DNA of 64,000 nucleotides, taken from positions 1,025,252 to 1,089,251 of the forward strand of contig MFAS01000001.1 in NCBI GenBank assembly GCA_001774685.1. Direction: 5' to 3'. The notes under the pieces were generated by a model. The model was not told the DNA's origin. It ran no database searches and was given only the letters and a program-made list of their open reading frames with translations. Of this stretch, positions 34,248-51,246 are shown piece by piece (the first letter of the stretch is position 1; every line of letters begins with the position of its first letter). The position numbers and the translations under genes are program-made. This stretch comes from Candidatus Collierbacteria bacterium RIFOXYD2_FULL_45_13 (lineage in GTDB: Bacteria > Patescibacteriota > Microgenomatia > UBA1400 > MFAQ01).

Positions 34248-36506
34248 CTAAACAGCAACCATCTCTTTTTCCGCTCGCTTCAGGAGTACCGCATTTGTCG
34301 CCACAATGATCGAAGACACACTCATTAGTAGCGCCGAGACTTCAGGTCGGAGCGAAATACCATAAGCCGGATACAAAACACCGGCAGCCACCGGAATCGC
34401 CAGCAGATTGTAGATCGAAGCCCAAAAAAGATTTTGTTTCATTTTTCGTACCGTCGCCTTAGAAAGTTTTATTGCCCGAAGAATATCTGCCGGATCAGAC
34501 TTCATCAGCACCACCCTGGCCGTTTCAATCGCCACGTCCGTCCCTGCTCCAATGGCGATACCAACATCCGACTGAGCCAAGGCCGGGGCATCATTCACCC
34601 CATCCCCCACCATGGCAACAAACTTGCCTTCATCTTGTAATTTTTTAACATAAGAAGCTTTCTCTCCGGGCAGTACCTCAGCAAAAATTCTCTCGATTCC
34701 TAGTTGCTTCCCAATCGCTTCCGCAGTTTTTTGATTGTCTCCGGTGATCATGGCCACTTCCAGTCCCATTTCTTTCATTCGAGTTACTGCCAGCTTGGCA
34801 TTTTCTTTTACCGGGTCAGACGCCGCCGCTACCCCCGCCAGCTTTTTATTCACCGCAAGTATCATTATCGTTTTTCCTTCAGACAAGAGCCTATCTATCT
34901 CACTCTTCAGGGTCGTTGTATCAACTTTATAATCTTTCATCAGTTTTTCGGTACCTACCAAGACATGCTTACCTGCCACCACCGCCTCCACTCCATGCCC
35001 CGCCAAGTTCTTAAATTTTTCCACCTTTGTCGAAATAGTTATTTTTCTTCTCTTCGCCTCTTCCAATATCGCCAAGCTCAACGGGTGAGATGACTTTGCT
35101 TCCACCGCTCCATCGAGACCAATAATTTCATTTTCAGTAAAGCCACTTGCCGCAATCACATCCGTAATTCTCGGCTTTCCTTCCGTTAGTGTTCCGGTCT
35201 TGTCTAGCACTACTGCTTGAATTTTTGAAACCTGTTCCAGGGTAGGCGCATCTTTGATCAAGATATTATGTTTTGCTCCCAACCCTGTCCCTACCGCTAC
35301 CGCTGTCGGTGTTGCCAGTCCGAGCGCATCCGGGCAAGCTATAACTATCGCCGAGATAGCAAAAGTCAGAGCCAGCATCAGTGGTTGACCAAGTACAAAG
35401 TACCAAACCAAGAATGTAATCAGACCTCCGCCTACCGCCACGATGACCAGATACTGAGCAAATCTATCTGCAATTTTTTGTCCTGGCGCTTTCGAGTTCT
35501 GAGCTGTCTCCACCATCTTGACGATCTGAGCGAGTGCAGTGTCTTCTCCTATTTTTGTCGCTTTGAATCGTACCGAGCCCGAAGTATTTATCGAACCGCC
35601 AATCACCTTATCACTCACATTTTTTACGACTGGTAGTGACTCCCCTGTTACGAGTGATTCGTCGATCGCTGTTTCTCCTTCGGTAATTTCTCCATCCACC
35701 GGCACTTTGTCCCCGGGTTTCAGAATCAGAATGTCGCCAAGTCTTACTTCAGATGTTGCTATCAGAGATTCTTTTCCGTTCTTCCACAGTCTGGCTTGAG
35801 GTGGCACCAGATCAAAAAGTGCTTGGAGGGCATCAGTCGTCCCTCTTCGGCTTTTCATCTCCATCCAGTGGCCAAACAAAACAAAGGTGGTGAGCATGGC
35901 TGCCGCTTCATAAAAAGACTCCTCACTCCCCAGCAGTGTGAGCACCACACTAAAAGCATAAGCCGCTGTTATACCTACAGCGATGAGCACCGCCATGTTT
36001 AATGCCTTGGCTTGTAATGCCTTGTAAGTAGAGTACAGAAAAATCCAGCCGGAATAAAAATAAACCGGTGTAGTTAAGAAGAACATTATCCAGCTCGCAG
36101 AAATCGGCATCGGCAGCTTCAATCCAAATATATTTGTTCCGAGAGGAGAATAAGCCACTATCGGTATGGTCAAAAGAAGGGACACAAAAAATTTATTTCG
36201 AATATCTTCTTCCATCATCTTCGCCATTTCCCGGCCGGCCAATCCGGTGTGTTCCATTCCCATCGCCATGGTCATACTCATTTTAAATTTTTCCCAAAAT
36301 GACATTTTTACACCGGGCTTCATCTCATGCTCCATCACCTGGTCACCATGACCCTTTTTATTGTGGTCCATTTTCATCTCCCCACCTGCAGGGCCTGGCC
36401 CTGCAGGCTTGTCATGTTTCATCACAAGCTCCATTCCGCACTTGGGGCACTTCCCTGGTTTGTCTAAGATAACCTCTGTGTGCATCGGACAGGTGTAGTT
36501 CATCAT
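34248..36506 (-). CDS. copA: Heavy-metal (Cu-type) P1B-ATPase with N-terminal CPxH/CxxC metal-binding (HMBD-like) domain, Met/His-rich stretch and atypical CPD transmembrane motif
   Basis: N-terminus YTCPMHTEV...KCPKCGMEL; MxM/His-rich segment; TGES (LVTGESLPV), DKTGTLT, GDGVNDAPAL. Ion-pathway motif IACPDALGLATP (CPD, verified on the DNA). The REP palindrome is inserted in frame at 36385-36407 and encodes PAGPGPAG. Confidence 0.85.
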   Translation of the reverse strand: MMNYTCPMHTEVILDKPGKCPKCGMELVMKHDKPAGPGPAGGEMKMDHNKKGHGDQVMEHEMKPGVKMSFWEKFKMSMTMAMGMEHTGLAGREMAKMMEEDIRNKFFVSLLLTIPIVAYSPLGTNIFGLKLPMPISASWIMFFLTTPVYFYSGWIFLYSTYKALQAKALNMAVLIAVGITAAYAFSVVLTLLGSEESFYEAAAMLTTFVLFGHWMEMKSRRGTTDALQALFDLVPPQARLWKNGKESLIATSEVRLGDILILKPGDKVPVDGEITEGETAIDESLVTGESLPVVKNVSDKVIGGSINTSGSVRFKATKIGEDTALAQIVKMVETAQNSKAPGQKIADRFAQYLVIVAVGGGLITFLVWYFVLGQPLMLALTFAISAIVIACPDALGLATPTAVAVGTGLGAKHNILIKDAPTLEQVSKIQAVVLDKTGTLTEGKPRITDVIAASGFTENEIIGLDGAVEAKSSHPLSLAILEEAKRRKITISTKVEKFKNLAGHGVEAVVAGKHVLVGTEKLMKDYKVDTTTLKSEIDRLLSEGKTIMILAVNKKLAGVAAASDPVKENAKLAVTRMKEMGLEVAMITGDNQKTAEAIGKQLGIERIFAEVLPGEKASYVKKLQDEGKFVAMVGDGVNDAPALAQSDVGIAIGAGTDVAIETARVVLMKSDPADILRAIKLSKATVRKMKQNLFWASIYNLLAIPVAAGVLYPAYGISLRPEVSALLMSVSSIIVATNAVLLKRAEKEMVAV
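36385..36407. repeat. REP-like 23-bp palindrome CCTGCAGGGCCTGGCCCTGCAGG, in frame inside copA (encodes PAGPGPAG)
   Basis: Exact copy of the palindrome found four times around the RAYT gene. Confidence 0.9.
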
Positions 36507-36580
36507 TTCATTTTATCCTTTTTCAAATATTTTGGTCTCTTCCCAATTTACTCCAAATCAACTACAATTTGTAGTAGCTT

Positions 36581-36889
36581 ATGAAAAAAGCTATTGGCAC
36601 TATCTTTCCATTTCTAATAATTCATCTCATTTGCTGCGGCAGTATTCTTCTGTTTCTTATCAGTTCCGGCTATTTATTACTACTTTCCAACGAAAGTCAA
36701 AACAAATGGTTTCTCCTCCCCAGCCTTCTCGCTCTTTTCCTTGCGTGGCGGGAACTAAACAAAATTGAACAAAAACCTTGGAAGATACTACTAACCGTTA
36801 TTATTTATCTGATCATCAGTTACATTTTTATTACTTATTTATTCATCCCTTGGTGGATACCGGGCTATGAAGGTGGACCATTACTCTAA
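36581..36889 (+). CDS. MerT-like heavy-metal transport membrane protein
   Basis: First TM carries a vicinal Cys pair (HLICCGSILLFLISSG), and ...SLLALFLAWRELNK resembles MerT (...ACCLGPL... / ...ALFFAWRRIYR). 102 aa, 3 TM. Confidence 0.55.
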   Translation: MKKAIGTIFPFLIIHLICCGSILLFLISSGYLLLLSNESQNKWFLLPSLLALFLAWRELNKIEQKPWKILLTVIIYLIISYIFITYLFIPWWIPGYEGGPLL

Positions 36890-37637
36890 CTTGAAAAATA
36901 CCAATCGGACACGCTTTTGGCAAATAGATGCTGTCCGTGGCTTAGCCGTCGTGGGTATGGTCATTTATCACCTACTTTTTGATCTCGAATATCTTTTTCA
37001 GCTTCCTCTAAATGTTAGTCATCTGCCTCTCATTGCATTAGCCAGATCAGTAGCGGTGACCTTTATTCTACTTATCGGCTTTTCTGTCGCCCTCAAATTT
37101 GAAACAATCAAGCGGTACGGACCAAAGCAGGTCATTCTCGCGTTTGTAAAAAAAGCAGTCACGATTTCTCTTTACGCTCTGCTCATAACCTTAGTCACCT
37201 ATCTAATTTTTCCACAGGGAACCATCATCTTCGGCATTCTCCATTTTATATCCCTATCGTTAGTGCTCCTGATACCTTTCCTATATCTACGCTCAAACGG
37301 GTTGGTGGCTCTATTAGCCACCGTTACTTTTGTTCTTGGTCTGGCAGTTCCTAATGTCACAGCTTCTCACAGCTGGCTCCTCATTCTCGGAATGACATCT
37401 TCCACTTTTTCCAGTCTCGACTACTTTCCCCTTCTCCCATGGTTCGCAGTCGTACTTTTTGGATTAGTTCTGGGCCGGAAATACTCACCTGCCCTCCAAA
37501 AACCAAGTCCTTCAAAAACTCCCCCATTATTTTTGTATAGAATAGTTTCTAAGCTCGGCAAACACTCTCTACCTATATATCTATGGCATCAGCCGGTGCT
37601 TTGGACTATATTATTTGTTATCAAATACTTCTTATGA
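36867..37637 (+). CDS. DUF1624-family (HGSNAT-like acyltransferase fold) polytopic membrane protein
   Basis: N-terminal RFWQIDAVRGLAVVGMVIYHLLFD matches the DUF1624 signature. ~8 TM helices. Confidence 0.55.
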   Translation: MKVDHYSNLKNTNRTRFWQIDAVRGLAVVGMVIYHLLFDLEYLFQLPLNVSHLPLIALARSVAVTFILLIGFSVALKFETIKRYGPKQVILAFVKKAVTISLYALLITLVTYLIFPQGTIIFGILHFISLSLVLLIPFLYLRSNGLVALLATVTFVLGLAVPNVTASHSWLLILGMTSSTFSSLDYFPLLPWFAVVLFGLVLGRKYSPALQKPSPSKTPPLFLYRIVSKLGKHSLPIYLWHQPVLWTILFVIKYFL

Positions 37638-37672
37638 ACCCACCTTCCCACCATTACGAAGAAACCATTTAA

Positions 37673-38056
37673 TTATTTACTTTCGTCAATAATCCCTCTA
37701 ATTACTGCATCAACCTCATCAGGCAGATTGCCCAGATCGGCCTCAGGAAAAAATTGAGGCAAAATGATCGGTCTCATCCCTGAAATATACGTCGCTCCAT
37801 CCTTCCGGTAGACATTTATCTTACATGGCAGACAAAGACCCATTTTAATGTCCGCTTGTAGTACCGCGTAAGCACTTTTGGCATTACAGATCTCAATAAT
37901 CTTCAAAGGCTCAATTTCCAAGCCTTTTTCTTTCAAGGTTTCAGCTACATCGTGAATATAAAGCACCCTAAAACCAGCCTTCAGTGTCTCCCGCTCAACC
38001 GCACCGACCGCTTCGTCAAATGATTTTTTTGTAGTAACAGTGTAATCAAAATTCAT
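37673..38056 (-). CDS. DUF302 domain protein
   Basis: 127 aa. The pattern ...ICNAKSAYAVLQADIKMGLCLPCKINVYRKDGATYI fits DUF302. Confidence 0.6.
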   Translation of the reverse strand: MNFDYTVTTKKSFDEAVGAVERETLKAGFRVLYIHDVAETLKEKGLEIEPLKIIEICNAKSAYAVLQADIKMGLCLPCKINVYRKDGATYISGMRPIILPQFFPEADLGNLPDEVDAVIRGIIDESK

Positions 38057-38121
38057 AAAAATTATTAACTAATAACAACCATAACTTTATCACCTTCAGT
38101 CTTTTGTCACAGGCCTGCAGT

Positions 38122-38520
38122 CTATGGAACATTTACCACAAAGTCCTTGTTTTTAGTGCTTCCCTCCGGCATGCTTGCTGTGATACGGACACGCCAAGGT
38201 CCTTGCATCGAAAGATTTCCGGTGACTATGTATCGCCCTTTGCCCTGAGAGGTCGCGGTTGCTCGCTGGGTACCCATATTCATCGTGGTCATATTTAGAT
38301 CAAATGACACTGTGGCATTGTCAACAGGCTTACCGTCCGCACCCCTAACATTAATGATAAAAGTTGCTTGTCCAGGTTGTAATGGATTTGGATCGGTAGT
38401 AAGAGAAATCACTTCGCTATTGGTAGTCGCACCCAAAACCGAAGATTTTACCTTCCAACTCATGACACCAATTAACCCTACTGCAATTACAAACATCGTT
38501 AACAATATTTTATTGCTCAT
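38122..38520 (-). CDS. YtkA/FixH-like secreted Ig-fold protein (possible Cu-binding)
   Basis: Signal/anchor helix, then a ~100-aa beta domain (...GKGRYIVTGNLSMQGPWRVRITAS) resembling YtkA-family copper-associated lipoproteins. Confidence 0.45.
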   Translation of the reverse strand: MSNKILLTMFVIAVGLIGVMSWKVKSSVLGATTNSEVISLTTDPNPLQPGQATFIINVRGADGKPVDNATVSFDLNMTTMNMGTQRATATSQGKGRYIVTGNLSMQGPWRVRITASMPEGSTKNKDFVVNVP

Positions 38521-38528
38521 CTTTATAT

Positions 38529-39014
38529 TTATTTTTTATAATTAACCACACACGATGAATTTCGACTTCTTATAAGCACAAAAAGAGAAACCGATAGGAG
38601 AAATATAGACAAGTAAGACAGTTCCGCTCCCCGATAAGGTAAATAAACGAGAGAACCACCGAGTCCTAGTAATGACAATATTGGCAGTCCGCAAGCCACA
38701 CACCCACTCCCCACAATTCCCAATAAAGAATTTCCACCCACCACTACTTGCAGCTTATCAAATTTATTAAGGACCACGATCTTCTCAAAAAGCAAACTAA
38801 GATTCGCACCAGTTAAGACCGCGATCAAAAACAAAATGACCAGTCCAGATAAAGTCATTGATGTCCACATACCCTGAATTAAAGCAAACAGGATCTGAAC
38901 TTTGTAACCAATTCCATAGCTACCTATCAAAGTATCTCTGGCCAAGCTACTATTCATCAGCAGGGTGACAAACAGTAGATAAAGACTGGAAATGGTAACA
39001 ATTGAGGCAAACAC
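38529..39014 (-). CDS. Polytopic membrane protein with intramembrane CxxC (GSGCVACG), putative thiol-disulfide oxidoreductase partner of DsbA (DsbB/VKOR-like role)
   Basis: 161 aa with 4-5 TM, a CVAC motif in a helix, and a position immediately downstream of the DsbA-like gene with a 3-nt gap. Confidence 0.4.
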   Translation of the reverse strand: MFASIVTISSLYLLFVTLLMNSSLARDTLIGSYGIGYKVQILFALIQGMWTSMTLSGLVILFLIAVLTGANLSLLFEKIVVLNKFDKLQVVVGGNSLLGIVGSGCVACGLPILSLLGLGGSLVYLPYRGAELSYLSIFLLSVSLFVLIRSRNSSCVVNYKK

Positions 39015-39016
39015 GT

Positions 39017-39805
39017 TTACTTCAGCAATTCATCAATGATGGCCTTGAAAACGCTATACGGTTGAGCACCGACGATTTTAATACCATCAATCTCGCCATT
39101 ACTTGTGGACTTACCGATAAAGAAGGTCGGCGTACCTGAGGCTCCTACCTTTGCGGCATCAGCTAAATCTTTGTCCACTTCGGTCTTAAACTCACCGGAA
39201 TCCAAACACTGCTGAAATTTACTCACGTTTAGGCCCAGTTCTTTTGCGATGACTGGTAGTTGGTCAAGAGCCAAACCTGTCCCATTGGAGGTTGTTTTAG
39301 TAAAGATCTGATCGTGATATTTGAAGTACGCCGTGTCTCCGCCTTGCTTCCTGGCACACTCAGCCGCCTCAGCTTCCTTGGGGGCGTTTTGATGGAAACC
39401 AAGAGGCAAATCACGAAACACCATCTTAACTTTTCCGGTATCGATGTAGTCTTTTTTAATTTGTGGATAAGTATCGGTAAAATATTTTTTACAGAACGGG
39501 CATTCGTAGTCCGAAAATTCAATCAAGGTCACCTTAGCCTTTTTGTCTCCCAATATCGGGTCGTCATCCACAGATACTTTTACCGGTGCGCCGCTATCTT
39601 CCGGAGCTTGTTGAGCTGGCGGCGTATTCCTACTACCAGCTCCCAATACTGGTTGACCAACACCATTTTTAAGATACTTAACCTCGGTCCAAAGCGAACC
39701 CAGAAAAAAGGCCGCCACGATTAGAAGAACCACCAATGCTGGAGCATAACTGTTATGTTTTTGGTTGGGACTCGAAATCACTTTTTTTATTTTTTCGACT
39801 GACAT
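39017..39805 (-). CDS. DsbA-family thioredoxin-like thiol:disulfide oxidoreductase (membrane-anchored)
   Basis: N-terminal TM and the CPFC active site (FSDYECPFCKKYF). DsbA fold pattern with a C-terminal ...GTPTFFIG (cis-Pro loop). Confidence 0.8.
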   Translation of the reverse strand: MSVEKIKKVISSPNQKHNSYAPALVVLLIVAAFFLGSLWTEVKYLKNGVGQPVLGAGSRNTPPAQQAPEDSGAPVKVSVDDDPILGDKKAKVTLIEFSDYECPFCKKYFTDTYPQIKKDYIDTGKVKMVFRDLPLGFHQNAPKEAEAAECARKQGGDTAYFKYHDQIFTKTTSNGTGLALDQLPVIAKELGLNVSKFQQCLDSGEFKTEVDKDLADAAKVGASGTPTFFIGKSTSNGEIDGIKIVGAQPYSVFKAIIDELLK

Positions 39806-39898
39806 ATATTTTGGATGTAACTAATAAACAATTACCCTACTACAAGTGTAGTAAGGAAATCAACAATTGTCAACAGAGGGTGTTGAATAACTTCGTCT

Positions 39899-39922
39899 TG
39901 TCATCCTCGCGAATGCGGGGAT
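39899..39922 (+). repeat. 24-nt direct repeat GTCATCCTCGCGAATGCGGGGATC (hairpin-forming), copy 1. A second hairpin, ATTCCCGATCAGGTCGGGAAT, sits at 39937-39957
   Basis: Identical 24-mer recurs at 41409-41432. Both are followed by similar AT-rich ATA.AAATAAG sequence. Confidence 0.8.
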
Positions 39923-40008
39923 CTATATAAATAAGTTCCAGATGGATTCCCGATCAGGTCGGGAATGACAAATAAATGCATTATTCAACGGTCTCGTCAA
40001 CACCAATT

Positions 40009-40959
40009 TTAGATATGGGAAAATAAAGCCTCCACCACCTTTGATTCACAGATGTTTGTACAGTTTTTATCCTTTGAACACAAAAGAATGGCGTCTCCGC
40101 CACCATTGTGATATTCAAATGCAGTAACTTGGCTGAGAGATAACCCCACCAGAACTACCAGGGAGACAAGGCTGACGACAATGTTAGTTACCGGAGATCT
40201 CCTTCTCTCGACTTTTTGATTAACCAATTTTTTAACTCTATACTCCAAAGTATCCCATTCTCCCAAAGAAGGGGCAAAATTAAAGGTATTTTTGTGGTCA
40301 TGGCTCAGCAGTTTTTTTAGTACCGATATTAATGATTTAGAATTTTTCATCCCCCTTATAGCCGCCCTATCAGCCTCAACCTCATTCAAAATGCGATATC
40401 TTTTTGAAACATCCGAAATAACTGGAAAGAATGGAAACATCGTTTGCACGACGGAAGCAAAAAGGCAAGTAAAAGCATCTTTGTTTTCTAGATGGTATCT
40501 TTCGTGTCTCATTACCGCTTCTAATTCAATCTCAGAAAGAATATTAACCAAACCTGTAGACACATAAATCTTAGTATTAATAAAACCAAAACAAAAAGCA
40601 GAGGGGTGATCACTCAAATAAACAGATAGCTTGTTTTGAAGACCTAGTTTTTTAGCCATCCTTTTAATTACAGGGCTTCGAACAGTTGATGCAGACAGAT
40701 CTCTGCCAATCTTCGAGGTCTTTACCATAGTCGCCACTAACTTTATAGTTATATACATAAGCATAACCAGAAACACCATCAGACTGGCTTCTCCTAAATT
40801 ATTTGGCAGTCGTATTGGCAAACCATCAATCACCTGCTGGCAGTAGTAAATCGACTGGTGAAAAAATATGAGAACATACTTCCGGAAAAGGCTTCCCAAC
40901 ATCATGCTAGAGAAAGCAAAAAAACCAATCAGAACCATGAAGTATCTATTTACTTTCAT
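40009..40959 (-). CDS. BlaR1-like M56 family zinc metalloprotease lacking a PBP sensor domain. Short Cys-rich C-terminal tail
   Basis: HExxH (MRHERYHLEN) in the M56 context with 4 TM. 316 aa, against ~600 for BlaR1. C-terminus ...LLCSKDKNCTNICESK. Overlaps the BlaI-like gene by 14 nt. Confidence 0.7.
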   Translation of the reverse strand: MKVNRYFMVLIGFFAFSSMMLGSLFRKYVLIFFHQSIYYCQQVIDGLPIRLPNNLGEASLMVFLVMLMYITIKLVATMVKTSKIGRDLSASTVRSPVIKRMAKKLGLQNKLSVYLSDHPSAFCFGFINTKIYVSTGLVNILSEIELEAVMRHERYHLENKDAFTCLFASVVQTMFPFFPVISDVSKRYRILNEVEADRAAIRGMKNSKSLISVLKKLLSHDHKNTFNFAPSLGEWDTLEYRVKKLVNQKVERRRSPVTNIVVSLVSLVVLVGLSLSQVTAFEYHNGGGDAILLCSKDKNCTNICESKVVEALFSHI

Positions 40960-41323
40960 GGGTACCCAAAAGCCTTAATAACTCTTCTCGTTTCTCTTTT
41001 TGCAAACTTTCGACTGATTTGGCAAACGAAACTGTTGCTGACTCCCCGAACGAATCAAAAAAGTTATTAAGAAAAGATTTGGCAATTTTTTTACTATATT
41101 CTTCGCTGGTGGACTTTGGAGAGAACACAAAGGCCATACCTTCGTTTCTTTTATTAACCATACCTTTTTTGTAGAGTCGGTCTAGCAGTGTTGCCACTGT
41201 TGTATAAGCCATAGGTTTGGCTTTTCCAAATTTATTCACCACATCTCGCACATGACATTTTTTAAGATCCCAAACCACAACCATCACTTCTTGCTCCAAT
41301 GGACTTAACTTTGTTTGTATCAT
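40946..41323 (-). CDS. BlaI/MecI/CopY-family winged-helix transcriptional repressor
   Basis: LSPLEQEVMVVVWD...VRDVVNKF...YTTVATLLDRLYKKGMV matches the penicillinase-repressor family fold. Confidence 0.75.
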   Translation of the reverse strand: MIQTKLSPLEQEVMVVVWDLKKCHVRDVVNKFGKAKPMAYTTVATLLDRLYKKGMVNKRNEGMAFVFSPKSTSEEYSKKIAKSFLNNFFDSFGESATVSFAKSVESLQKEKREELLRLLGTHESK

Positions 41324-41408
41324 AAGATACTACTATTGTAGTACAATTTTAAAAAGGGTAATTTTCTACAAATATTTGTTCGATGTATTACAATAATTTA
41401 TCACCCAA

Positions 41409-43094: not shown

Positions 43095-43117
43095 CCTGCA
43101 GGGCCTGGCCCTGCAGG
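43095..43117. repeat. REP-like 23-bp palindrome, copy 4 (between the RAYT start and the copA stop)
   Basis: Exact copy. Confidence 0.9.
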
Positions 43118-43125: not shown

Positions 43126-46100
43126 TCATTTAGTTTGGTTTTGTACCAATTTAAAATAATTTTCCTTGAACTCTTTCGACACAAAGTGCATCTCATCCAG
43201 AACCGTAAAGTTCTTTTTGGCTACCCCGGCAACTAGCACATCACTGCCAAAGAGTCCGGTTATTCTATCTTGGTTGTTTGTAAACAGTTTCTCCTTCTTC
43301 ATCATGGCTGCTTCATTGTAACCAATATAAATCGGCAGGAATCTCTTACCTTCAATGTTGTAACTCAGCTTATACGGATCCACTATTCCCTTAAGCTGTT
43401 CAGGAGTATTCTTCCCGTCCAGAATGTAGAACAGTTTCAGCTCATCATAAGGAGTCTGGGCTACGACCAGGTCAGATCCGTCGACTTTAGCAAATGCCTC
43501 TTTACCCATCAAGTGATACTCGTCCAAAATTGTATTGGTAGGAGCTAGGATTCCCGCTATTCTTACCTTGGGCACTCCAAAGAAGTTATCGATAGTGTCA
43601 CCGACTTTTCCAAATAATTTTTCTTCTCTCATCATCTCGGCCTCCTTACTACCAATCACGATTCCCGGAACTTCACCCGACATATCCAAACCGCCCTCGG
43701 CTACTTTAATGTTTCCATTCACCGTACCGGCACTCAAGAACATCTTTGTCTGTCCTTCCTCAGTAATCAGCACCCTTGATTCTCCTGCAGTCAAAAGCTG
43801 AACTATCAAAGTATTTATTCCCGGCTGCGTCTGGGCATAAGTCTTCACCACACCCATATTTTCTTTTGTCGAGATCGTGGCAAACTGCCAGAAGATAAAC
43901 AGGAAGGCGGCGGTCATCACTACCGGAGCCAGTTTTGATAACAGGTTCCATCCCTTCGGATTAAATCTTTTTAACACTAGTGAGTTACTTACGACCGACA
44001 CGGACGACAGTGTCATGGCCAGTCCCGCCAGCTCCGGTTTGAGTATCAGACCAATTCCGGCAAAGATTCTGGCGGCCACCGGGATTCCCAGAACGTTGTA
44101 GAACAAAGCGAAGAACATGTTTTGTCTGATCTTATCGACAGTTTCTTCACTGAGTTTGATGGCTGTCAGGACTCCATTCAAATCATTGTTCATAATGATT
44201 ATTCCACCGGACTCCAGAGCAATGTCCGCGCCTGACGCCATGGCAATCCCCAGATCGGCCTGCACCAAAGCGGGTGAGTCATTGATTCCGTCCCCCACCA
44301 TCGCCACGGTTTTACCCAGCCCTTGAAGTTTTTTAACTTCCTCGGCCTTATTCTGTGGCAACACTTCTGCGAGCACGTTGGTAATACCTATCTGCTTGGC
44401 AATCGCATTCGCTGTCCTTCGGTTATCCCCCGTGATCATGTAAACTTCAATCCCTTTGTCTTGTAGTTTTTTGACTACTTCGGCAGTGGATTCTTTTACC
44501 TGATCTGCGACCGCGATAATTCCTAAGATCTGTTCTTTGTTGGCAATCAGCATGGCTGTCTTACCATCTTCTTCCAGTCTTTCCAGATCCATAAAGGAGA
44601 AGGCTTGGACTTTCTTCGACTCCATCAGTCTTCTGTTGCCGATATAGTAAGTCTGTCCGGCAATGACGGCTTCTACTCCGTGTCCCGGAATTGCTTGGAA
44701 GGATTCCACGGGAGTTTGCAAATCCACTGAAGAGATTCTTGTCTTGCAGTAATCCACAATGGCAGCTGCCAGTGGATGTTCCGACTTGGCTTCGACAGCA
44801 TTCAGCACCGTCAAGATTTCCTGTTCGGCTTTATTGGAATAATTAATAAAGTTAGTCACTTCCGGTTTCCCTTTTGTCAGAGTTCCCGTTTTATCAAACA
44901 CAATCGCGTCAATCTTGCAGGCCGTCTCCAGAGGCTCTCCGCCTTTGATTAATATTCCCAGCTCCGCACCCTTACCTGTCGCCACCATAATGGCTGTTGG
45001 TGTCGCAAGACCCAAAGCGCATGGGCAAGCGATCACAATCACCGACACAAAGGCCAGCAGGGCAAAGGTTAGTGGCATGCCGAGAAGAAAGTACCACACC
45101 GCAAAAGTCAGCAGAGCGATACCAATCACGACCGGGACAAAGATAGCTGAGATTTTGTCGGCAAATCCTTGTATCGGAGCTTTTGATCCCTGCGCATCTT
45201 CAATCAGTCTCACAATCTGAGAAAGAACCGTATCGGCACCGACTTTACTTACCTGGAACTCAAAACTACCTGTTTTATTAATTGTGGCGGTATACACTTT
45301 ACTTCCCATCTGTTTCTCCACCGGAATACTTTCCCCTGTTAGAGCCGACTCATCTACCGCACTATTGCCGGTCACAATCACGCCATCGACCGGTACTCTT
45401 TCGCCGGGCCGGACCAGAACAATATCACCCACTACTACCTTTTCTATCGGCAGATCCTCAGGCATTCCATTACGCATGACTCTCGCGGTTTTAGGAGCCA
45501 GCCCCATCAATTTCTCGATCGCCTGTGAGGTTCGCCCTTTAGCCTTGGCCTCTAGCCACTTTCCAAGTGCCACAAAGGTAATTAGTAATGCCGCTACTTC
45601 GAAGTACAAATTCCCGATCTTCATTCCGTTTAGTCCATAAATCGATCCGGTTTCCACTGTAAACTTCAAAAACTCAAGCAGACTATATACATAGGCTGTC
45701 AGTGTTCCGATAGCGATCAAACTATCCATGCTAAAGGTTTTCATTTTTAAAGCCGAAATTGCCCCACGAATAAAGTTATTACCTACCCAAAACTGAACGG
45801 GGGTCGCAAGCACCAAAGAGATAATTCCACTGATTGGCATAATTACTTTGGCAAAGGGAAGTCCTGCCACAAAGTCATAGATCATAAAACCCACCATCGG
45901 TAAACTTAAAATTAATCCGGTGAGAAACTTCCTTCCCCAATACCTAATCTCCAAAGATCTTTTTTCGTTTTCACTTACTCCGGCACTCTCTTCGGGCAGT
46001 GTTGCGGTATAGCCGGTTCTTTTTACCGCTTCTTTAAGCTCACTTGGACTAACCGCCAGAGATTGATATTTTATTCTGGCTTTACTGGTCGCAAAGTTAA

Positions 46101-46533
46101 CATTCGCTTCGGTAACTCCTTTAGTTTTCACTAGTGATCTTTCAATCAGTCCGGCGCAACTGGAACAATGCATCCCTGAGATATTTAGGTAAGCAATCTG
46201 ACTATCCGACTTTTCCTCTATCATTGTCTCGCGACTTGGCTGGACCATATCAACGATTTCACTATCTAGAGTTTTTGAGTTTTTGAGTTCTTGAGTTTTC
46301 TGTATTCCGTTCCCCGTGATCGACGTCGCCGTATACCCTGCTTCCTTAATGTTTTCAATCAGTTTATCTTCCGTAATTGCCTTCGGATTGTATTCCACGT
46401 CCACCTGTTTTGTCGCTAGTAATGCGTTAACAGACTTCACTCCTTTTAGTCCTTTAAGATTCAAAGAAATGAGTTTTGGGCAGGACTCGCAGTGCATGTC
46501 GGCAACTGCAAATGAAGTTTGTTTATAGTTCAT
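43126..46533 (-). CDS. copA: Cu+-exporting P1B-1 ATPase with two N-terminal HMA domains and an unusual ~330-aa C-terminal extension containing an internal duplication
   Basis: HMA1 [11 protein letters not shown] and HMA2 [11 protein letters not shown]; TGES (ALTGESIPV); CPC ([12 protein letters not shown]); DKTGTLT; [10 protein letters not shown]. After the last TM there is a ~330-aa tail with two similar ~50-aa segments (…[24 protein letters not shown]… and …[24 protein letters not shown]…). Confidence 0.85.
46263..46298. repeat. GAGTTTTT/AAAAACTC octamer tandem repeat (x4), in frame in the copA HMA1-HMA2 linker (encodes [12 protein letters not shown])
   Basis: The same tandem octamer recurs at 56764-56799 and 60468-60495. 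Confidence 0.7.
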
Positions 46534-46538: not shown

Positions 46539-46757
46539 TTATTTTGTAACACTGGCTGCGTAACCGGTTTCCTCAATTGCGCTAATTATTAACTCAGGAG
46601 ACACTTTTTCGGTATGGCTGACAATAACCGTTTTGTCCTTCAAGGAAGCGTTAGAACTTACCACACCCGGTATCTCTTCCAAGGTAATATTGATTAATTT
46701 TGGACACGACTCGCAGTGCATGTCCGGAACCGAGAACTTGATTGTTTTTGTACTCAT
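46539..46757 (-). CDS. copZ: HMA-domain metallochaperone (CopZ-like)
   Basis: 72 aa with [11 protein letters not shown], the same variant motif as HMA1 of the adjacent ATPase. Confidence 0.8.
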
Positions 46758-46826: not shown

Positions 46827-48362
46827 TTATTTATTTCCTCCACAAGATCCCGTACCACTACCTCCACAACCACACCCTTTCGCTCCGGAACCGACGGGCT
46901 CTGTGACTGTCCCCACCGAACCCTGACTATCCACTACCTCGATCGTCCCCGAAACCATACCCATCCAGCAGGTAAACTTGTAGACACCAACTTTTGCTGG
47001 TGTAAACTCTCTTGTTGAGACCTGTCCTGGAATCAAATCAATCTGTCCTTCAAACAGCTTAGAAATAATGGCATTGGTACATCCGCTGGTGCCGGTATCG
47101 GTAACTTCCATAATGGTTGGAACTCCAACTCTAATCTGAAAGCGGTTAGGTGAGTATCCTCTTGCCGATGCTTCCATTTTGATAACTTGCTTTCCCCCCA
47201 CCATCGGCACCAGATTTATTACTCCTGCTGTTGTGGTCCTTCCCAAGATTTGTCTTGTTCCAATTCCGGCAATCACATCTCCGACATTGGTAAGTCCAAG
47301 CACCGAGAGCTGGCTGTTAACATTAAAAAGTGAGAAAGCAAGCACCAAAATCCCCGCCAGAGTCGAAAAGTTCTTCGAAGAGTTTTTATCAGCCAACATC
47401 TTGGTACTCCCTAGTCCAATGGCCAAAAGACCAGGAACTGTCCCAAGTGCAAAGAGACCCATTATCAGAGCTCCTTGCACCGGTGATCCCGAGGCTAAGG
47501 CCAACGCCTGGGCCGTTACCGTAAATCCACAAGGTAAGAAGAATGTTAAAGCACCCATAAATAAAGGTGACAGTTTTCCTTGAAAATTATTTTCATCCGA
47601 GACACTTCTAGTAATTGATTTTGGTAATCTAAACTGGAACTTTTGCACTGCTTTTACCCCAAGCATCTGCAAACCAAGAACAATCATCACCACAGAAACC
47701 GCTATTACGAGCATCGCAGAAAAAGACGGAGACAAGCGGAAGAAGTTACCCACAAAACCAAGAATCGCTCCAAAGAAACCATATCCGGCCACACGCCCAA
47801 TGTTAAACAATATATGCGGTTCTGACTTTGTCGCTAGGGAATCGTTCTCACTATATTTAGACATCCACTGCTTAGACATCGATAACACCAAACTGCCTAC
47901 CAAAGCCGCACAGCTGGAAACCCCAGCTAGCAACCCAAAAAGGAAAAAGACCGGCAAAGCCGATTGAGAGTTTACGGAAACTAGTGAGGCAAACCCAGTC
48001 TTTTGGAGTATGTAGAATCCCATCAGAAATAAAGCCGCCACCATAAAAGGCACAAACCTATCATTAGGATTACCTTCATCTCTCACCTCACAAGAGATAT
48101 TTTTAGTTTTACTTTGTTTTTGAAAAGGCTCGGTTGAGAAGGCATAGCCATCCCCAGCGAAAAATCCATTCAAGAAATCAACCGATATTAGGTGATCTTT
48201 TTCCGTCTCAATACTCAGTGTTTCTTTATCCAAAGAAACATCAGCCATGATAACCCCCTCAGTTTTCTTTAGTCTCTTTTCTATGATCAGTTCACAAGAG
48301 GCACAGTGCAGACCTCTGATGTAGAAAGTAGAGACTGTCCGGTCTTCTTTGTTGCTTAACAT
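46827..48362 (-). CDS. Three-part fusion: N-terminal HMA domain + DsbD_2/TauE-like multi-TM domain (Cys in separate helices) + C-terminal Cys/Met-rich soluble domain, with a Gly/Cys-rich tail
   Basis: GLHCASCELI (HMA). Membrane domain with ...AGVSSCAALVG... and ...FFLPCGFTVTAQ.... C-terminal ...YKFTCWMGMVSGTIEVV and a GCGCGGSGTGSCGG tail. Confidence 0.65.
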   Translation of the reverse strand: MLSNKEDRTVSTFYIRGLHCASCELIIEKRLKKTEGVIMADVSLDKETLSIETEKDHLISVDFLNGFFAGDGYAFSTEPFQKQSKTKNISCEVRDEGNPNDRFVPFMVAALFLMGFYILQKTGFASLVSVNSQSALPVFFLFGLLAGVSSCAALVGSLVLSMSKQWMSKYSENDSLATKSEPHILFNIGRVAGYGFFGAILGFVGNFFRLSPSFSAMLVIAVSVVMIVLGLQMLGVKAVQKFQFRLPKSITRSVSDENNFQGKLSPLFMGALTFFLPCGFTVTAQALALASGSPVQGALIMGLFALGTVPGLLAIGLGSTKMLADKNSSKNFSTLAGILVLAFSLFNVNSQLSVLGLTNVGDVIAGIGTRQILGRTTTAGVINLVPMVGGKQVIKMEASARGYSPNRFQIRVGVPTIMEVTDTGTSGCTNAIISKLFEGQIDLIPGQVSTREFTPAKVGVYKFTCWMGMVSGTIEVVDSQGSVGTVTEPVGSGAKGCGCGGSGTGSCGGNK

Positions 48363-48406
48363 ACTACATAGTGTAGTTGGTTAAACATTCTCTGTCAAGA
48401 GGGTAT

Positions 48407-49324
48407 TCAGTGGAGCTCCAGCACCGAGGAAATAGCGGACAAACACAAGGTCAAATGAGGGCAACTGTAGAAGTTTACCTTAGTCACGAGGTAAGCAAAA
48501 ACCAACGCTCCTACCCCAGTCGAACAGGCCACGCCAAGCACCATCTTTTTATTGAGCCTCTTCCTTCCAACTAGCAGACCAATTCTCTCGCTCTGGCTAC
48601 TAAAGAAATTAATCCCGGCTAACATGGCAGTGTCTCCCCAGTTCAATCGTTTGTACAGAGCCGTAATCAGGGGCAGTCCTGTTCCCAGTCTTTCTTCGGC
48701 CTTTTTGTCGGCACACACTTCGACCAAGGTATAAAAGTAGCCAGCCAGCTTTGTCTTCCCCGGGAAACTGGGCAAAATCTTCTCAACCATTCCTACCACA
48801 GTAGTTCGCAACGGGTCTCTCGACTGGGCATGATTGAGTTCATGCAACACCATCGCTTTGAGTTCCTTAGAACCATGCATTTTGTGAAGGCTCTTAGATA
48901 TGTATATTTTTGGAGACCACAAGCCGGCCGTAAAGATCTCCCCACCAGCTGAATCGAAGAGAACTTTCTTCCCGGTTTGCGAACAGATCTTGAGTCCACC
49001 CACAAACATTCTTGTTTTTCTTACCATCTGCACCGTTTTTAAGGCAACATTCAAAGCTCGCCATATTAAAGCCAAGCTTAGTAGCCACAACCCGAGAGAT
49101 ATCCAGAGCTGAGATAAATTACCATAACTTTCGAGACTGTACCCATACTTTCTGGCGTCGAACAAATAAACTATCAACATCAGTGTCCCAGGTGAACTCT
49201 GAAAAAACACCCACAGTATCGAGGCCAAATAGATAATACCCAGAGCCAATATGGCCCAAAAGTACAGGTCCGATAATTTACTTAGTTTTCGATGATTCAT
49301 TCGATTTAGTACTATCCTCAACAT
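48407..49324 (-). CDS. BlaR1-like M56 zinc metalloprotease, second copy, sensor-less. C-terminal CPHLTLC
   Basis: HExxH (VLHELNHAQS) with 4 TM, 305 aa. Overlaps its BlaI-like partner by 47 nt. Confidence 0.7.
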   Translation of the reverse strand: MLRIVLNRMNHRKLSKLSDLYFWAILALGIIYLASILWVFFQSSPGTLMLIVYLFDARKYGYSLESYGNLSQLWISLGLWLLSLALIWRALNVALKTVQMVRKTRMFVGGLKICSQTGKKVLFDSAGGEIFTAGLWSPKIYISKSLHKMHGSKELKAMVLHELNHAQSRDPLRTTVVGMVEKILPSFPGKTKLAGYFYTLVEVCADKKAEERLGTGLPLITALYKRLNWGDTAMLAGINFFSSQSERIGLLVGRKRLNKKMVLGVACSTGVGALVFAYLVTKVNFYSCPHLTLCLSAISSVLELH

Positions 49325-49670
49325 ACTGCTTGAGTAGCTCCAGATCTCCTTTATTATTTTTCAACTCGTCTACAAACTGAGAGATCGCTAATCCCCCAAA
49401 ATCATTTACGAGGTTGCCATAGATCGCCGACAAGTTTTTCTTCACAAAAACCTCTTTTTCCAAACAAGGACAATACTCAAAGGCTTTTCCGCACATTTCC
49501 CTCTTTAGGATCTTCTTGTCAGCCATTCTTTTGAGCACCGTCATAATCGTAGTGTAGGCATGATCGCCTCCCAGCTTTCCCAAGACTTCCTGTGGTTTGA
49601 GTGGCTTTTCAGCCTCCCAGAGAATGTTCATCACCTGCTCCTCAAGCGGTCCAAATAATTTGCTTTTCAT
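49278..49670 (-). CDS. BlaI/CopY-family repressor with internal Cys cluster (CGKAFEYCPC)
   Basis: EEQVMNILWEAEKPLKPQEVL...YTTIMTVLKRMADKKIL winged-helix pattern of the BlaI family. The extra Cx6CxC is absent from classical BlaI. Confidence 0.7.
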   Translation of the reverse strand: MKSKLFGPLEEQVMNILWEAEKPLKPQEVLGKLGGDHAYTTIMTVLKRMADKKILKREMCGKAFEYCPCLEKEVFVKKNLSAIYGNLVNDFGGLAISQFVDELKNNKGDLELLKQYVEDSTKSNESSKTK

Positions 49671-49722
49671 ATACTACGTATTGTAGCATAGACTATTATA
49701 TCGTCGCCTCGAATCTACAATC

Positions 49723-49778
49723 TCCTGTAGGGCCAGGCCTTGAAGGATGAGTTTCCTATAAGGCCTGGCCCTAACGGA
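49723..49778. repeat. Degenerate, split REP-like element: CCTGTAGGGCCAGGCC-(22 nt)-GGCCTGGCCCTAACGG in the blaI-2 / DsbD_2 divergent promoter region
   Basis: Two half-sites related to the REP palindrome form a 16-bp inverted repeat around a 22-nt loop. Confidence 0.55.
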
Positions 49779-49807: not shown

Positions 49808-50863
49808 ATGCAAAACACCAACTTACTCATCATCTTCCTCACCGGTCTCACCACTGGCGGTCTCACCTGCCTAGCCCTCCAAGGCGGACTACTGACCTCG
49901 GTTATGGCCAAAAGAGAGGAAGAGTTCCTCAACACTTCTTCCAAAAAAACCCTGCGAGAATCTTCCTCAAAGATAAACTCCGGTAACTTGGTACCGGTTA
50001 TCTCTTTTCTCTCCGGCAAACTTTTCATTCACACCCTCCTGGGAGCTCTACTTGGCTTGCTCGGCTCGGCTATCACCCTTTCTCCGATCACTCGCGGTTG
50101 GCTCGAAGTTTTTATCGGTATTTACCTTTTTGGTATTGCCGGTAATCTACTGCACCTACACCCTCTGTTCCGTTATTTTGTCATCACGCCTCCCAAGTTT
50201 CTGGCCAAACTAGCCAAAAACGAATCAAAAAGTAATTCCGTCTTTGCCCCTGCCCTTCTCGGTCTCATGACGGTTTTCCTCCCTTGTGCCACCACTCAGG
50301 CTATGGAAGTAATCGCCATCGGCACCGGAAATCCTCTTTATGGCGCCGCCATCATGTTTGCTTTTGTCCTCGGTACCTCTCCCACTTTCCTCATTTTTGG
50401 CTTCCTTCTCAATCAAGGCTCCACTTGGTTAAAAAAATATTTCCCTACTGTCGCGGCTACCGCTATGTTTGGCATGTCTATTTACAGTATCAACGCCGGC
50501 ATTGGTCTCATGGGCTCCGTCTATACCATTCAAAACTTTATCTCAGCGGCCAAGTCCGAACCGGTTCTGGCCAGCAACTCCGTTCTGGGCGACAAGGTCC
50601 AGACTACTACCATCACAGTAGCCAATTCCGGTTACACCCCCAGACAAATCACCCTCAAAAAAGGGGTTCTGACAAAACTAAAATTAATCACGAATAATGT
50701 CCAGTCGTGTTCACGCTCCTTTACCATTCCCAGTCTTAACATTCAAAAGCTGTTGCCCGTGACTGGTGAAACCACCATCGAATTCACCCCCAAAACCACT
50801 GGCCCTCTCGCCTTCTCCTGCTCCATGGGCATGTACACCGGCCGTTTCAATATTATTAATTAA
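49808..50863 (+). CDS. DsbD_2/TauE-like multi-TM protein with C-terminal Cys/Met-rich soluble domain (paralog of the 46827..48362 core)
   Basis: ...GGLTCLALQGG... and ...VFLPCATTQAMEV... in TM helices. C-terminal ...LAFSCSMGMYTGRFNII parallels FTCWMGMVSG of the paralog. Confidence 0.6.
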   Translation: MQNTNLLIIFLTGLTTGGLTCLALQGGLLTSVMAKREEEFLNTSSKKTLRESSSKINSGNLVPVISFLSGKLFIHTLLGALLGLLGSAITLSPITRGWLEVFIGIYLFGIAGNLLHLHPLFRYFVITPPKFLAKLAKNESKSNSVFAPALLGLMTVFLPCATTQAMEVIAIGTGNPLYGAAIMFAFVLGTSPTFLIFGFLLNQGSTWLKKYFPTVAATAMFGMSIYSINAGIGLMGSVYTIQNFISAAKSEPVLASNSVLGDKVQTTTITVANSGYTPRQITLKKGVLTKLKLITNNVQSCSRSFTIPSLNIQKLLPVTGETTIEFTPKTTGPLAFSCSMGMYTGRFNIIN

Positions 50864-50879
50864 ATTTTTATTGAATATA

Positions 50880-50960
50880 TTGTGCAGAGGCGCCAGCAAA
50901 AAGCCGCACGGAGCGGATCCGCACTCGTACTCGAGGGACGGAGGTCGAGTACAGCTTTTT
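50880..50960. promoter_or_regulatory. GC-rich, multiply palindromic intergenic element upstream of the copZ-like gene (candidate operator or structured leader)
   Basis: GCAAAAAGC...GCTTTTTGC outer inverted repeat enclosing GAGCGGATCCGCAC (near-palindrome) and GTACTCGAGGGACGGAGGTCGAGTAC (8-bp inverted repeat). Confidence 0.35.
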
Positions 50961-50998
50961 GCGCGGCTCGAACAATCAAAATAAAAATTTAAATCAAA

Positions 50999-51246
50999 TG
51001 TTTAACTTTTTCAAACCAAAAACCATCAGCATCACCCCCAACACCGAGTCAATTACTTTACAGCTTTCCGGCCTCCACTGTTCCTCTTGTGCCGTGAACA
51101 TCGATCTGGCTCTCGAAGACCTCCCTGGCGTGATAGCCAAAACCAACTACGCCAAGTCCGAAACCAAGATAACCTTCGACCCCTCCCAAACCTCTCTCGA
51201 TGCTATCCACTTCACCATCCGCGACCTCGGGTACAACATCATATAG
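50999..51246 (+). CDS. copZ: HMA-domain metallochaperone (CopZ-like). Track ORF begins at 50959; the ATG at 50999 is preferred
   Basis: LSGLHCSSCAVNIDLALEDLPGV, with a βαββαβ-sized ORF. Confidence 0.7.

Follow-up and report, generated by a model that had tools for sequence, protein, structure and literature searches.

The cop operons of Firmicutes, the PetR/PetP pair of cyanobacteria, the protein CopM of Synechocystis and the DsbD/CcdA/ScsB proteins are the closest described counterparts of the copper locus analyzed here. The cop operons (CopY-CopZ-CopA-CopB in Enterococcus hirae, CopY-CupA-CopA in Streptococcus pneumoniae) combine a repressor of the BlaI/CopY family and TACA/TGTA-type dyads with an HMA-domain chaperone, a P1B-1 exporter carrying a CPC motif, a second CopB-like ATPase, and CupA-type cupredoxin domains. 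As reported by Garcia-Canas et al. 2021 (via PMC7896320), the BlaI-family regulator PetR is removed by the BlaR1-family protease PetP when copper is present, and this pair sets the choice between plastocyanin and cytochrome c6. CopM is a secreted or anchored copper-binding protein of the DUF305 family encoded in a copper-responsive locus under the control of CopRS (PMC4335983). Proteins of the DsbD/CcdA/ScsB type, known from Scs copper tolerance, have a DsbD_2 core of six transmembrane helices with one invariant Cys in each half, an attached outer domain with redox-sensitive Cys residues, and DsbA-type partners nearby. Bacteria of the Candidate Phyla Radiation (CPR) have minimal genomes, and they presumably live attached to hosts. 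We analyzed a 64-kb stretch of DNA (hereafter the window) from the 1.09-Mb genome of the CPR member Candidatus Collierbacteria bacterium RIFOXYD2_FULL_45_13, in which a run of metal-related genes occupies positions 34248-51246 (~17 kb, 1.6% of the genome). This locus is probably a copper-homeostasis supercluster typical of Collierbacteria, and more broadly of Microgenomates and the CPR, which was inherited and remodelled in a plastic slot rather than recently imported.

The Collierbacteria locus contains all of the cop operon elements listed above. In contrast to the cop operons, however, its repressors lack the CopY CxC...CxC site and are each paired with an M56 protease, its CupA-type domains are carried on CcdA-like cores with six transmembrane helices and are predicted to face outward instead of being cytoplasmic, its second ATPase has a CPD rather than a CPH motif, and its CopA has an extra helix followed by a putative outer domain. 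Like PetR/PetP, it has BlaI-type proteins encoded next to short BlaR1-type proteases without a penicillin-binding domain, again in a copper context. Unlike PetR/PetP, it has two paralogous pairs with candidate operators one base apart in spacing, and its predicted regulons comprise efflux and envelope defence. The DUF305 protein of the locus is paired with a DUF5676 membrane protein and lies behind a predicted BlaI-type operator, in contrast to the CopRS-controlled CopM. The DsbD_2 proteins differ from the DsbD/CcdA/ScsB family in that their attached domain is a CupA-type copper site and not a thioredoxin fold, and an N-terminal HMA domain is uncommon in this family. What sets the locus apart from known copper-homeostasis systems is its dual BlaI/BlaR1 circuit, its extended CopA and its HMA-CcdA-CupA fusions.

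Gene content and conservation of the copper locus

A sequence-only reading of this DNA had described a dense block of copper and heavy-metal genes in a small genome and suggested that it represents a horizontally acquired island. The description of the gene content was borne out, since all listed genes were found in place using open reading frame (ORF) listing and Pfam, with nearly all families supported (Table 1). The block is functionally coherent and unusually large for a genome of this size, and it also includes a DUF5676 gene that had not been listed. The suggestion of horizontal acquisition held only in part: the region is indeed variable and contains a REP-associated tyrosine transposase (RAYT) gene with repetitive extragenic palindromic (REP) elements, but the comparison with relatives speaks against a recent import of a 17-kb block with these edges.

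Table 1. Genes, repeats and candidate operators of the copper locus, in window coordinates
Feature	Position	Strand	Family assignment and remarks
CPD-type P1B ATPase (CopB-like)	34248-36506	-	Pfam HMBD, E1-E2_ATPase and Hydrolase; NCBIfam copper-translocating P-type ATPase, above cutoff
REP copy in CPD-ATPase linker	36385-36407		In-frame; encodes PAGPGPAG
Type-b operator candidate AACTACAATTTGTAGTA	36560-36576	.	Divergent promoter of CPD ATPase and CC102-DUF1624
CC102, 102-residue membrane protein	36581-36889	+	CC motif; overlaps start of DUF1624 gene; no family match
HGSNAT_cat/DUF1624, membrane acyltransferase-like	36867-37637	+	Pfam, E=1.8e-59; also in L008 and L134 clusters
DUF302	37673-38056	-	Pfam
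ytkA	38122-38520	-	Pfam
CxxC membrane protein, 161 residues	38529-39014	-	GxGCxxCG invariant; no Pfam match even at E<=10
dsbA	39017-39805	-	Pfam
Type-a operator candidate TACTACAAGTGTAGTA	39838-39853	.	Upstream of dsbA; holds canonical TACAnnTGTA box
blaR1_a, short M56 protease	40009-40959	-	Pfam; HERYH; no penicillin-binding sensor domain
blaI_a	40946-41323	-	Pfam Penicillinase_R winged helix
Type-a operator candidate TACTACTATTGTAGTA	41328-41343	.	Between blaI_a and divergent DUF305 gene; same position in L009 and L015
DUF305, N-terminal anchor	41456-42043	+	Pfam; same family as CopM
DUF5676, two transmembrane helices	42072-42341	+	Pfam
REPs flanking RAYT gene	42358-42380, 43095-43117
RAYT-like Y1 transposase	42388-43071	-	Pfam Y1_Tnp, 42 bits (cutoff 23); HUH motif HFH, Tyr motif YIHRNP
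REPs inside RAYT gene	42584-42606, 42891-42913		In-frame
Long-form CopA (P1B-1, CPC)	43126-46533	-	Pfam, NCBIfam; two N-terminal HMA domains
CopZ-type HMA chaperone	46539-46757	-	Pfam HMA
Fusion protein	46827-48362	-	Pfam; HMA, one extra transmembrane helix, DsbD_2 (CcdA-like) core, CupA-type Cupredoxin_1, GCGCGG tail
Type-b operator candidate TACTACATAGTGTAGTT	48362-48378	.	Directly upstream of fusion gene
blaR1_b, short M56 protease	48407-49324	-	Pfam, weak match; HELNH; no penicillin-binding domain
blaI_b	49278-49670	-	Pfam Penicillinase_R
Type-b operator candidate TACTACGTATTGTAGCA	49672-49688	.	Divergent region of blaI_b and DsbD_2-CupA gene
Degenerate inverted REP pair	49723-49778		Where sister homology ends (49785)
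DsbD_2 with CupA-type Cupredoxin_1	49808-50863	+	Pfam
HMA protein	50959-51246	+	Pfam; gene callers predict 82 residues

A scan of genome collections returned only three sister loci (L005-L007; labels of this form denote loci from relatives), and wider sampling came from look-ups of exact proteins. In at least four other Collierbacteria-like lineages, the same modules are arranged collinearly in the same slot, flanked by the S1 gene and radA. On an 841-kb contig (L009), the order is 23S-5S-...-S1 (84% identical)-blaI_b-blaR1_b-HMA-DsbD_2-cupredoxin-copA-blaI_a-blaR1_a-dsbA-CxxC-ytkA-DUF302-DUF5676...radA, which is collinear with the window, and the metal proteins share 59-91% identity with those of the window. 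Three Collierbacteria loci from the same aquifer study (L011-13) show S1-HMA-DsbD_2/cupredoxin, adjoined by blaI_b-blaR1_b-fusion-copZ-copA ... CC102 ... CPD ATPase ... radA, and L015 has the fusion gene, copA, the entire blaI_a-DUF302 module, the CPD ATPase (88%) and radA. The lineage of L019, L021, L033 and L069 (S1 89%) has the same order with a RAYT gene likewise placed between copA and blaI_a. The sequence-only reading had named a gene order conserved across related lineages as the finding that would speak against an island, and this is largely what these loci show. Over the relatives, the cluster proteins are 58-91% identical at the amino acid level versus 84-89% for the flanking S1 protein; the cluster has diverged to a similar degree as core genes. 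Every named relative of CopA and of the CPD ATPase is from the CPR, as are most relatives of the fusion protein, some of which come from Actinobacteria (~47-49% identity).

The gene content of the slot is not fixed. Additional genes come and go among the lineages (FtrD-like, multicopper oxidase, methyltransferase and a DUF1573 set), and a Woesebacteria-like locus contains the same modules in another order together with a multicopper oxidase. The locus is accessory and plastic rather than core.

In relative L008, whose CopA is 79% identical to that of the window, the region immediately upstream of blaI_b (positions 774-6278) encodes a ParB-methyltransferase, small and large terminase subunits (large subunit E=6.5e-74), a Sie-like protein and a large serine integrase (E=1.8e-56). 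We considered this prophage remnant as proof of phage carriage of the cluster and rejected it, since the stretch read contains only a remnant without structural genes, and it demonstrates proximity, not cargo.

Boundaries and composition of the locus

The comparison with sister genomes gave a divided answer. Most of the cluster is absent from L005-L007, the closest available species, but the more distant L009, L011-13, L015 and L019/L021/L033/L069 carry it collinearly in the same slot. The flank proteins of the three sisters are 85-98% identical to those of the window, and their gene order is S1-methyltransferase-NAGPA-222 residues-445 residues-HIT-HMA-DsbD_2/cupredoxin-CopA'-...-391-residue gene. 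From the cluster, they keep only the HMA and DsbD_2/CupA genes (window 49808-51246; 74-89% and 70-90% identical, respectively), along with a different CopA (CopA'). In L006 and L007, CopA' shares 42-43% identity with the CopA of the window and 40-42% with the CPD ATPase. Nucleotide homology with L006 is unbroken from 55099 to 49785 and resumes on the other side at ~24140-24160. The segment specific to the window is therefore 24.16-49.79 kb (~25.6 kb), where the sisters hold 3.8-4.0 kb, and it also contains the ATP synthase alpha, gamma, beta and epsilon genes, the gene for a 1501-residue protein and a LytR_C gene. Thus, the proposed island edges are ends of the metal-gene run and not evolutionary boundaries: the right one falls inside sister-conserved sequence, as the last 1.4 kb (DsbD_2/CupA and HMA) are conserved even in the sisters. 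The L006 record (CAYHNG010000017) is labelled 'uncultured Pseudomonadales bacterium', yet it is syntenic with Collierbacteria at 83-98% identity and is probably mislabelled or misbinned.

Locus L014, the closest relative by CopA (87%), links the two states. It shares the right-hand arrangement of the window, and beside its long CopA it has a second ATPase (CopA'') that is 73% identical to the CopA' of the sisters. As L014 carries both the long CopA and a CopA'-like ATPase, the sister arrangement is best read as derivable from an L014-like state by a deletion of ~7.6 kb. The junction between the DsbD_2 and blaI_b genes is present in both L011 and L014. For this reason, the degenerate REPs at 49.72-49.78 kb were rejected as an insertion scar.

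Neither of the proposed edges coincides with a compositional break in G+C, dinucleotide delta* or tetranucleotides. The block has a G+C content of 43.5% (46.5-47% in the flanks) and a dinucleotide delta* of 0.027 compared with 0.0285 for the right core flank, its tetranucleotide correlation is inside the range of the window, and its composition is native. These measures were discarded as boundary detectors; the sole consistent dip (the blaI_a-DUF302 module) is common to the relatives. The search for an integrase, a tRNA gene or an att site was negative: the 64-kb window has no tRNA gene, no integrase or recombinase was detected among the ORFs tested across it, and no flanking direct repeats were found.

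RAYT gene and REP palindromes

The mobile-element signatures that had been taken as support for an island are real, but they are not marks of island mobility, as the REPs are dispersed. A perfect 23-nucleotide palindrome (CCTGCAGGGCCTGGCCCTGCAGG) occurs five times in the window (zero expected), with all copies in the cluster region. The transposase scored 44 bits against NCBIfam REP_Tyr_transpos (cutoff 80). Its layout of two flanking and two internal REPs is shared by RAYT loci that are 72-91% identical, and L134 has the same DUF305-DUF5676-RAYT order. The 23-mer is free of stop codons in all six frames, encoding PAGPGPAG, LQG[L/Q]ALQ or CRA[W/R]PCR, and the PAGPGPAG insertion in the CPD ATPase is found only in the protein of this genome among 120 homologues. 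The same 23-mer is present on at least 117 metagenome contig stretches. In groundwater CPR contigs (loci L018-L134), it is frequently located well inside long ORFs; among singleton copies, 61% are in stop-free stretches of at least 150 codons compared with 77% of random positions, which represents a mild depletion.

As in RAYT/REP systems, a single Y1 (HUH) transposase gene is flanked by cognate short palindromes of a widely dispersed repeat, whereas the copies located in-frame inside protein genes are reminiscent of Rickettsia palindromic elements. Classical REPs are extragenic and GTAG/CGTC-tagged, which the present ones are not: the repeat consists of nothing but the 23-nucleotide palindrome, which lacks a GTAG/CGTC tag (compare PMC3733652) and, over 99 distinct copies, any conserved flank; its depletion from ORFs is only mild, and two copies are conserved inside the RAYT gene itself. 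The RAYT gene and REPs are a feature of these genomes at large and do not show that the 17-kb block is mobile. As a class, RAYTs are domesticated genes present in single copy; they spread REPs and are not vehicles of islands.

BlaI/BlaR1 pairs and their candidate operators

Both BlaI/BlaR1-like pairs noticed in the sequence-only reading are present, with the two genes of each pair adjacent or overlapping. The Penicillinase_R domain is found in BlaI_a and BlaI_b, and neither has the C-terminal CxC pair of CopY. An alignment of BlaR1_a orthologues revealed an invariant His284 and Cys300 in the tail. The BlaR1_b orthologues have an invariant C-P-H-x3-C...H tail after the last transmembrane helix, which hydropathy would place on the side opposite to the protease domain. 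The locus thus has the sequence features of a PetR/PetP-like BlaI/BlaR1 switch, namely an adjacent pair, the HExxH motif and conserved dyads at promoters.

The dyads, which resemble the TACA/TGTA operators of BlaI, MecI and CopY (PMC7253601), fall into two classes, type a (TACTAC-N4-GTAGTA, 16 bp) and type b (TACTAC-N5-GTAG(T/C)A, 17 bp). The 64 kb contain only two perfect type-a sites and only three exact matches to the type-b core CTAC-N5-GTAG, the latter all in promoter regions of the cluster. The dyads recur at the same relative positions in six relatives (L008, L009, L011, L014, L015 and L016) and are absent from the blaI-less sisters. The site upstream of dsbA is conserved in L008, L009 and L015, those upstream of blaI_b and of the fusion gene are both conserved in L008, L009, L011 and L014, and the site between the CPD ATPase and CC102 genes has a counterpart at the same position in L015. 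Three of the five sites overlap the -10 boxes of the best promoter-like sites: the CPD ATPase/CC102 site (promoter-like site 36540-36568, plus strand), the dsbA site (39845-39873, minus strand, 10/12) and the fusion gene site (48370-48398, minus strand, 10/12). The canonical cop box TACAnnTGTA was rejected as a search motif, since its two matches are no better than chance, and the longer TACTAC-N4/5-GTAGTA dyads are the informative ones.

At 48362-48398, the -10 box of the promoter-like site of fusion-copZ-copA is only ~8 nucleotides from the start codon, and the transcript may therefore be leaderless or nearly so. A 22-nucleotide hairpin-forming repeat (CATCCTCGCGAATGCGGGGATC; 33 nucleotides at 94% identity) was observed twice in the window (zero expected), between blaR1_a and dsbA (39902-39923) and just upstream of the DUF305 start (41411-41432). 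It may act as an attenuator or processing site, or it may be a small mobile repeat.

P1B ATPases and CopZ

The N-terminus of the CPD ATPase consists of an HMBD zinc-ribbon-like metal site and a Met/His-rich linker. Its ion-path CPD aligns with the CPC of Legionella CopA (3rfu) and is conserved in 119 of 120 homologues. The protein does not have the CPH motif of P1B-3 ATPases (CopB) and fits a rare CPD subtype, mentioned so far only as an atypical variant of P1B-3 (PMC5552934).

The long-form CopA is a P1B-1 exporter with a TIGR01511 score of 614 bits (cutoff 397) and a CPC motif found in 120 of 120 relatives. Hydropathy indicates a ninth hydrophobic segment after the usual eight, followed by a C-terminal domain of ~250 residues (window 43126-43986). 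Since the C-terminus of P1B ATPases is cytoplasmic, the additional helix would place this domain outside the cytoplasm. Within the domain there are two repeats in which EAxMM and LDxxH motifs are conserved, and neither Pfam nor NCBIfam yielded a family for it. An AlphaFold2 model built from an alignment of 41 long-form homologues (pLDDT 90, pTM 0.79) produced the periplasmic domains of LolC, LolE, MacB and YbbP as the best and consistent, though weak, fold matches in the PDB. As with the periplasmic domains of MacB, LolCE and FtsX, it follows a membrane helix; unlike them, it is fused to a P-type ATPase rather than an ABC permease, has its own repeat motifs and belongs to no Pfam family. The domain family comprises 173 clusters, in which it is fused to ATPases of ~1000-1125 residues or forms stand-alone anchored proteins of 230-310 residues. 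Long-form CopA proteins are found in Shapiro-, Davies- and Magasanikbacteria, SR1 and Absconditabacterales, and the ninth helix appears to be typical of CPR CopA. The CopZ-type HMA protein encoded next to copA is 92-93% identical in L008 and L014.

Envelope and thiol-redox proteins

The C-terminal domains with a Cys-x-Met-Gly-Met motif, pointed out in the sequence-only reading, are homologous, by both sequence and fold, to pneumococcal CupA and to the metal-binding domain of CopA. The domain of the DsbD_2/CupA protein (window 50555-50860) matches 2mry/4f2e with E=7.5e-9, with both Cys residues and the CxMxM motif aligned, whereas the fusion protein domain (window 46830-47240) matches 4f2f/2mry with E=6.9e-5, also with aligned ligands. 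CupA (4f2e) is the top fold match of the latter domain (TM-score 0.89, root-mean-square deviation 1.3 Å). Residues C20/C23, C151, C278, C428 and C465-x-M-x-M are invariant in 43 homologues of the fusion protein, which corresponds to the CxxC of the HMA domain, one Cys in each half of the DsbD_2 core and the C...CxMxM site; the GCGCG tail is invariant as well. Hydropathy, the K+R counts of the loops and manual reading of the sequences suggest that the CupA-type domains face outward.

The genes dsbA-CxxC-ytkA-DUF302 (37673-39805, minus strand) are predicted to form an operon and occur in the same order in L008, L009, L015 and L016. They may constitute a thiol and copper module at the external side of the membrane. 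The gene for the 161-residue CxxC protein immediately follows dsbA in every case. The protein shows invariant GxGCxxCG and LP(Y/F)RGxE motifs and matched no family in Pfam or NCBIfam; it may be a so far undescribed DsbA redox partner in the CPR. The protein called MerT-like in the sequence-only reading (CC102) does have the CC motif, but it matches no family and the name rests on the motif only; its homologues in the L008 and L011 clusters are 58-70% identical. Similarly, the "double DUF305" protein has one Pfam domain, the two halves of which each carry an HH motif.

Alternative explanations

Several observations weigh against a copper-homeostasis supercluster inherited in place. Most of the cluster is missing at this site from the three closest species available, and inheritance therefore requires a loss in the sister lineage. 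The CPD ATPase is 82-84% identical to proteins from Woese- and Daviesbacteria but 75-76% to those of the L011 Collierbacteria and the L008 relative, the blaI_a-DUF302 module has a G+C content of 40-41% in three genomes with flanks of 45-47%, and a prophage remnant with an integrase abuts the cluster in L008. With respect to function, DUF1624, CC102, DUF302 and DUF5676 have no role assigned in the proposed scheme, and the similarity of the CopA extension to LolC/MacB is weak (E ~0.01, TM-score 0.24-0.34). Some of these points would fit a mosaic hotspot, old in location, where the cluster was largely assembled by transfer within the CPR as whole modules (blaI_b-copA, blaI_a-DUF302, CPD ATPase and DUF305-DUF5676-RAYT) repeatedly arrived from other Microgenomates through homologous or illegitimate recombination. 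The CPD-ATPase identities are 75-91% across Woese-, Davies-, Levy- and Roizmanbacteria and the Collierbacteria-like loci and do not track the lineage names (89% between Woese- and Daviesbacteria, 82-83% between the window and Woesebacteria, 75-76% between the window and L011 or L008), which makes some exchange within Microgenomates plausible, although a highly conserved ATPase core could give such flat values without transfer. Likewise, the RAYT proteins are 90-91% identical in lineages where CopA is only 70% identical, module order varies with genes gained and lost, and the low G+C of the blaI_a module and the L008 remnant are compatible with swapping; on the other hand, collinearity between the same anchors in at least four lineages, a divergence scaling roughly with S1, and the lack of a compositional break, junction repeats or a recombinase in the window all argue for descent in place. 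We regard wholesale assembly by module swapping as unlikely. A discrete ~17-kb island (34248-51246) recently acquired by this lineage is very unlikely: the gap in the three sister species does not coincide with it (the right edge is in sister-conserved sequence and the left break is at ~24.16 kb, not 34.25 kb), its lower G+C (43.5% versus ~47%) goes with a native oligonucleotide composition and with no integrase or tRNA gene, and the REPs inside it, including the degenerate pair at the end of sister homology, belong to a family too dispersed to mark this region specifically. Such an import is also contradicted by synteny, as the cluster occupies the same slot in more distant relatives, the DsbD_2/blaI_b junction is ancestral (L011, L014), and L014 bridges both states.

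It is highly improbable that the locus is not primarily a copper system and serves instead in general envelope thiol/redox stress or in defence against another soft metal (Ag, Hg, Cd or Zn). In favour of this reading, DsbA and DsbD_2 belong to redox families, the CPD motif is uncharacterised, the BlaR1 proteins may sense a different signal, and CC-motif proteins and HMA domains are found in mercury systems too (sub-threshold matches to NCBIfam MerTP and MerP). However, both ATPases scored above the NCBIfam cutoff for copper translocation and CopA has the CPC motif, the binuclear Cu(I) ligands of CupA are invariant, DUF305 (CopM family), CopZ and YtkA proteins accompany them, the Woesebacteria version includes a multicopper oxidase, and no MerA, MerR or ArsR is encoded in the window cluster.

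Neighbouring features of the window

The region 24176-28839, which is missing from the site in L006 and L007, contains ATP synthase epsilon, beta, gamma and alpha genes and a 255-residue ORF without a family match. ATP synthase a or c subunit genes are not located upstream; instead, the gene for the 1501-residue protein overlaps the 255-residue ORF by 4 nucleotides. In L112 and L116, a RAYT gene (56% identical) is located beside ATP synthase gamma and beta. The 1501-residue protein (28836-33341) has a Peptidase_S74 intramolecular-chaperone domain and tail-fibre-like PHROG matches, and its gene includes internal 161-nucleotide repeats at 29548, 31114 and 31552; the L014 homologue adjoins the copper cluster of that genome. 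Compared with L006 and L009, the window has an insertion of ~710 bp between the 23S and 5S rRNA genes (60868-61579) with a LAGLIDADG endonuclease ORF (60989-61462). A separate insertion of ~1 kb interrupts the 23S gene of L009, and in L011 a LAGLIDADG_2 ORF is located upstream.

Proposed working of the locus and implications

In its slot between the rRNA/S1 region and radA, the supercluster would have gained and lost modules, and CPR relatives probably also exchanged them with one another. The functional scheme outlined here, including the copper response, operator binding, proteolysis and topology, is a prediction from sequence, as are regulon membership and the direction of metal and electron flow. 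In this scheme, the Cys/His tails of the two short BlaR1-type membrane proteases, predicted to be on the outer face, would serve as copper sensors, and each protease would remove its cognate BlaI repressor, as PetP removes PetR in cyanobacteria. BlaI_b would bind the type-b operators and control its own operon, HMA-DsbD_2-CupA/copZ/copA, the divergent DsbD_2-CupA/HMA genes, and the divergent CPD ATPase and CC102-DUF1624 pair. BlaI_a would bind the type-a operators, with a regulon comprising its own operon, DUF305-DUF5676 and dsbA-CxxC-ytkA-DUF302. After derepression, CopZ would pass Cu(I) to CopA, and the CPD ATPase would serve as a second exporter. The MacB/LolC-like domain of CopA, the CupA-type domains, YtkA and the DUF305 protein may bind the metal outside, while the CcdA-like membrane cores would keep the CupA-type domains reduced, and DsbA with its CxxC partner could repair copper-damaged surface thiols.

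A broader proposal, which we advance tentatively and hold to be somewhat doubtful as a whole, is an 'outside-first' copper defence in the CPR made of parts that have not previously been reported in combination. An outward-facing CPHx3C...H tail would let short BlaR1 proteases sense copper, a CopA that has a ninth helix and an outer domain resembling MacB/LolC, with conserved Met/His motifs, would receive or expel the exported Cu(I), and CupA-type Cu(I) traps would sit outside the cell on CcdA-like thiol relays. Independently of this, the RAYT may spread a stop-free 23-nucleotide palindrome that colonises coding sequences in-frame, including the RAYT gene and the CPD ATPase gene.

For genome scans, this locus advises caution: gene density and a transposase-like gene are insufficient for calling an island, and synteny across graded relatives reversed the conclusion. 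The long-form CopA and the HMA-CcdA-CupA fusion represent architectures without a described function. The two-regulon BlaI/BlaR1 circuit, if true, extends copper sensing of the PetR/PetP type from cofactor choice to detoxification. Finally, the conserved investment of ~1.6% of the genome suggests that copper stress is a persistent selective force for CPR bacteria in groundwater.

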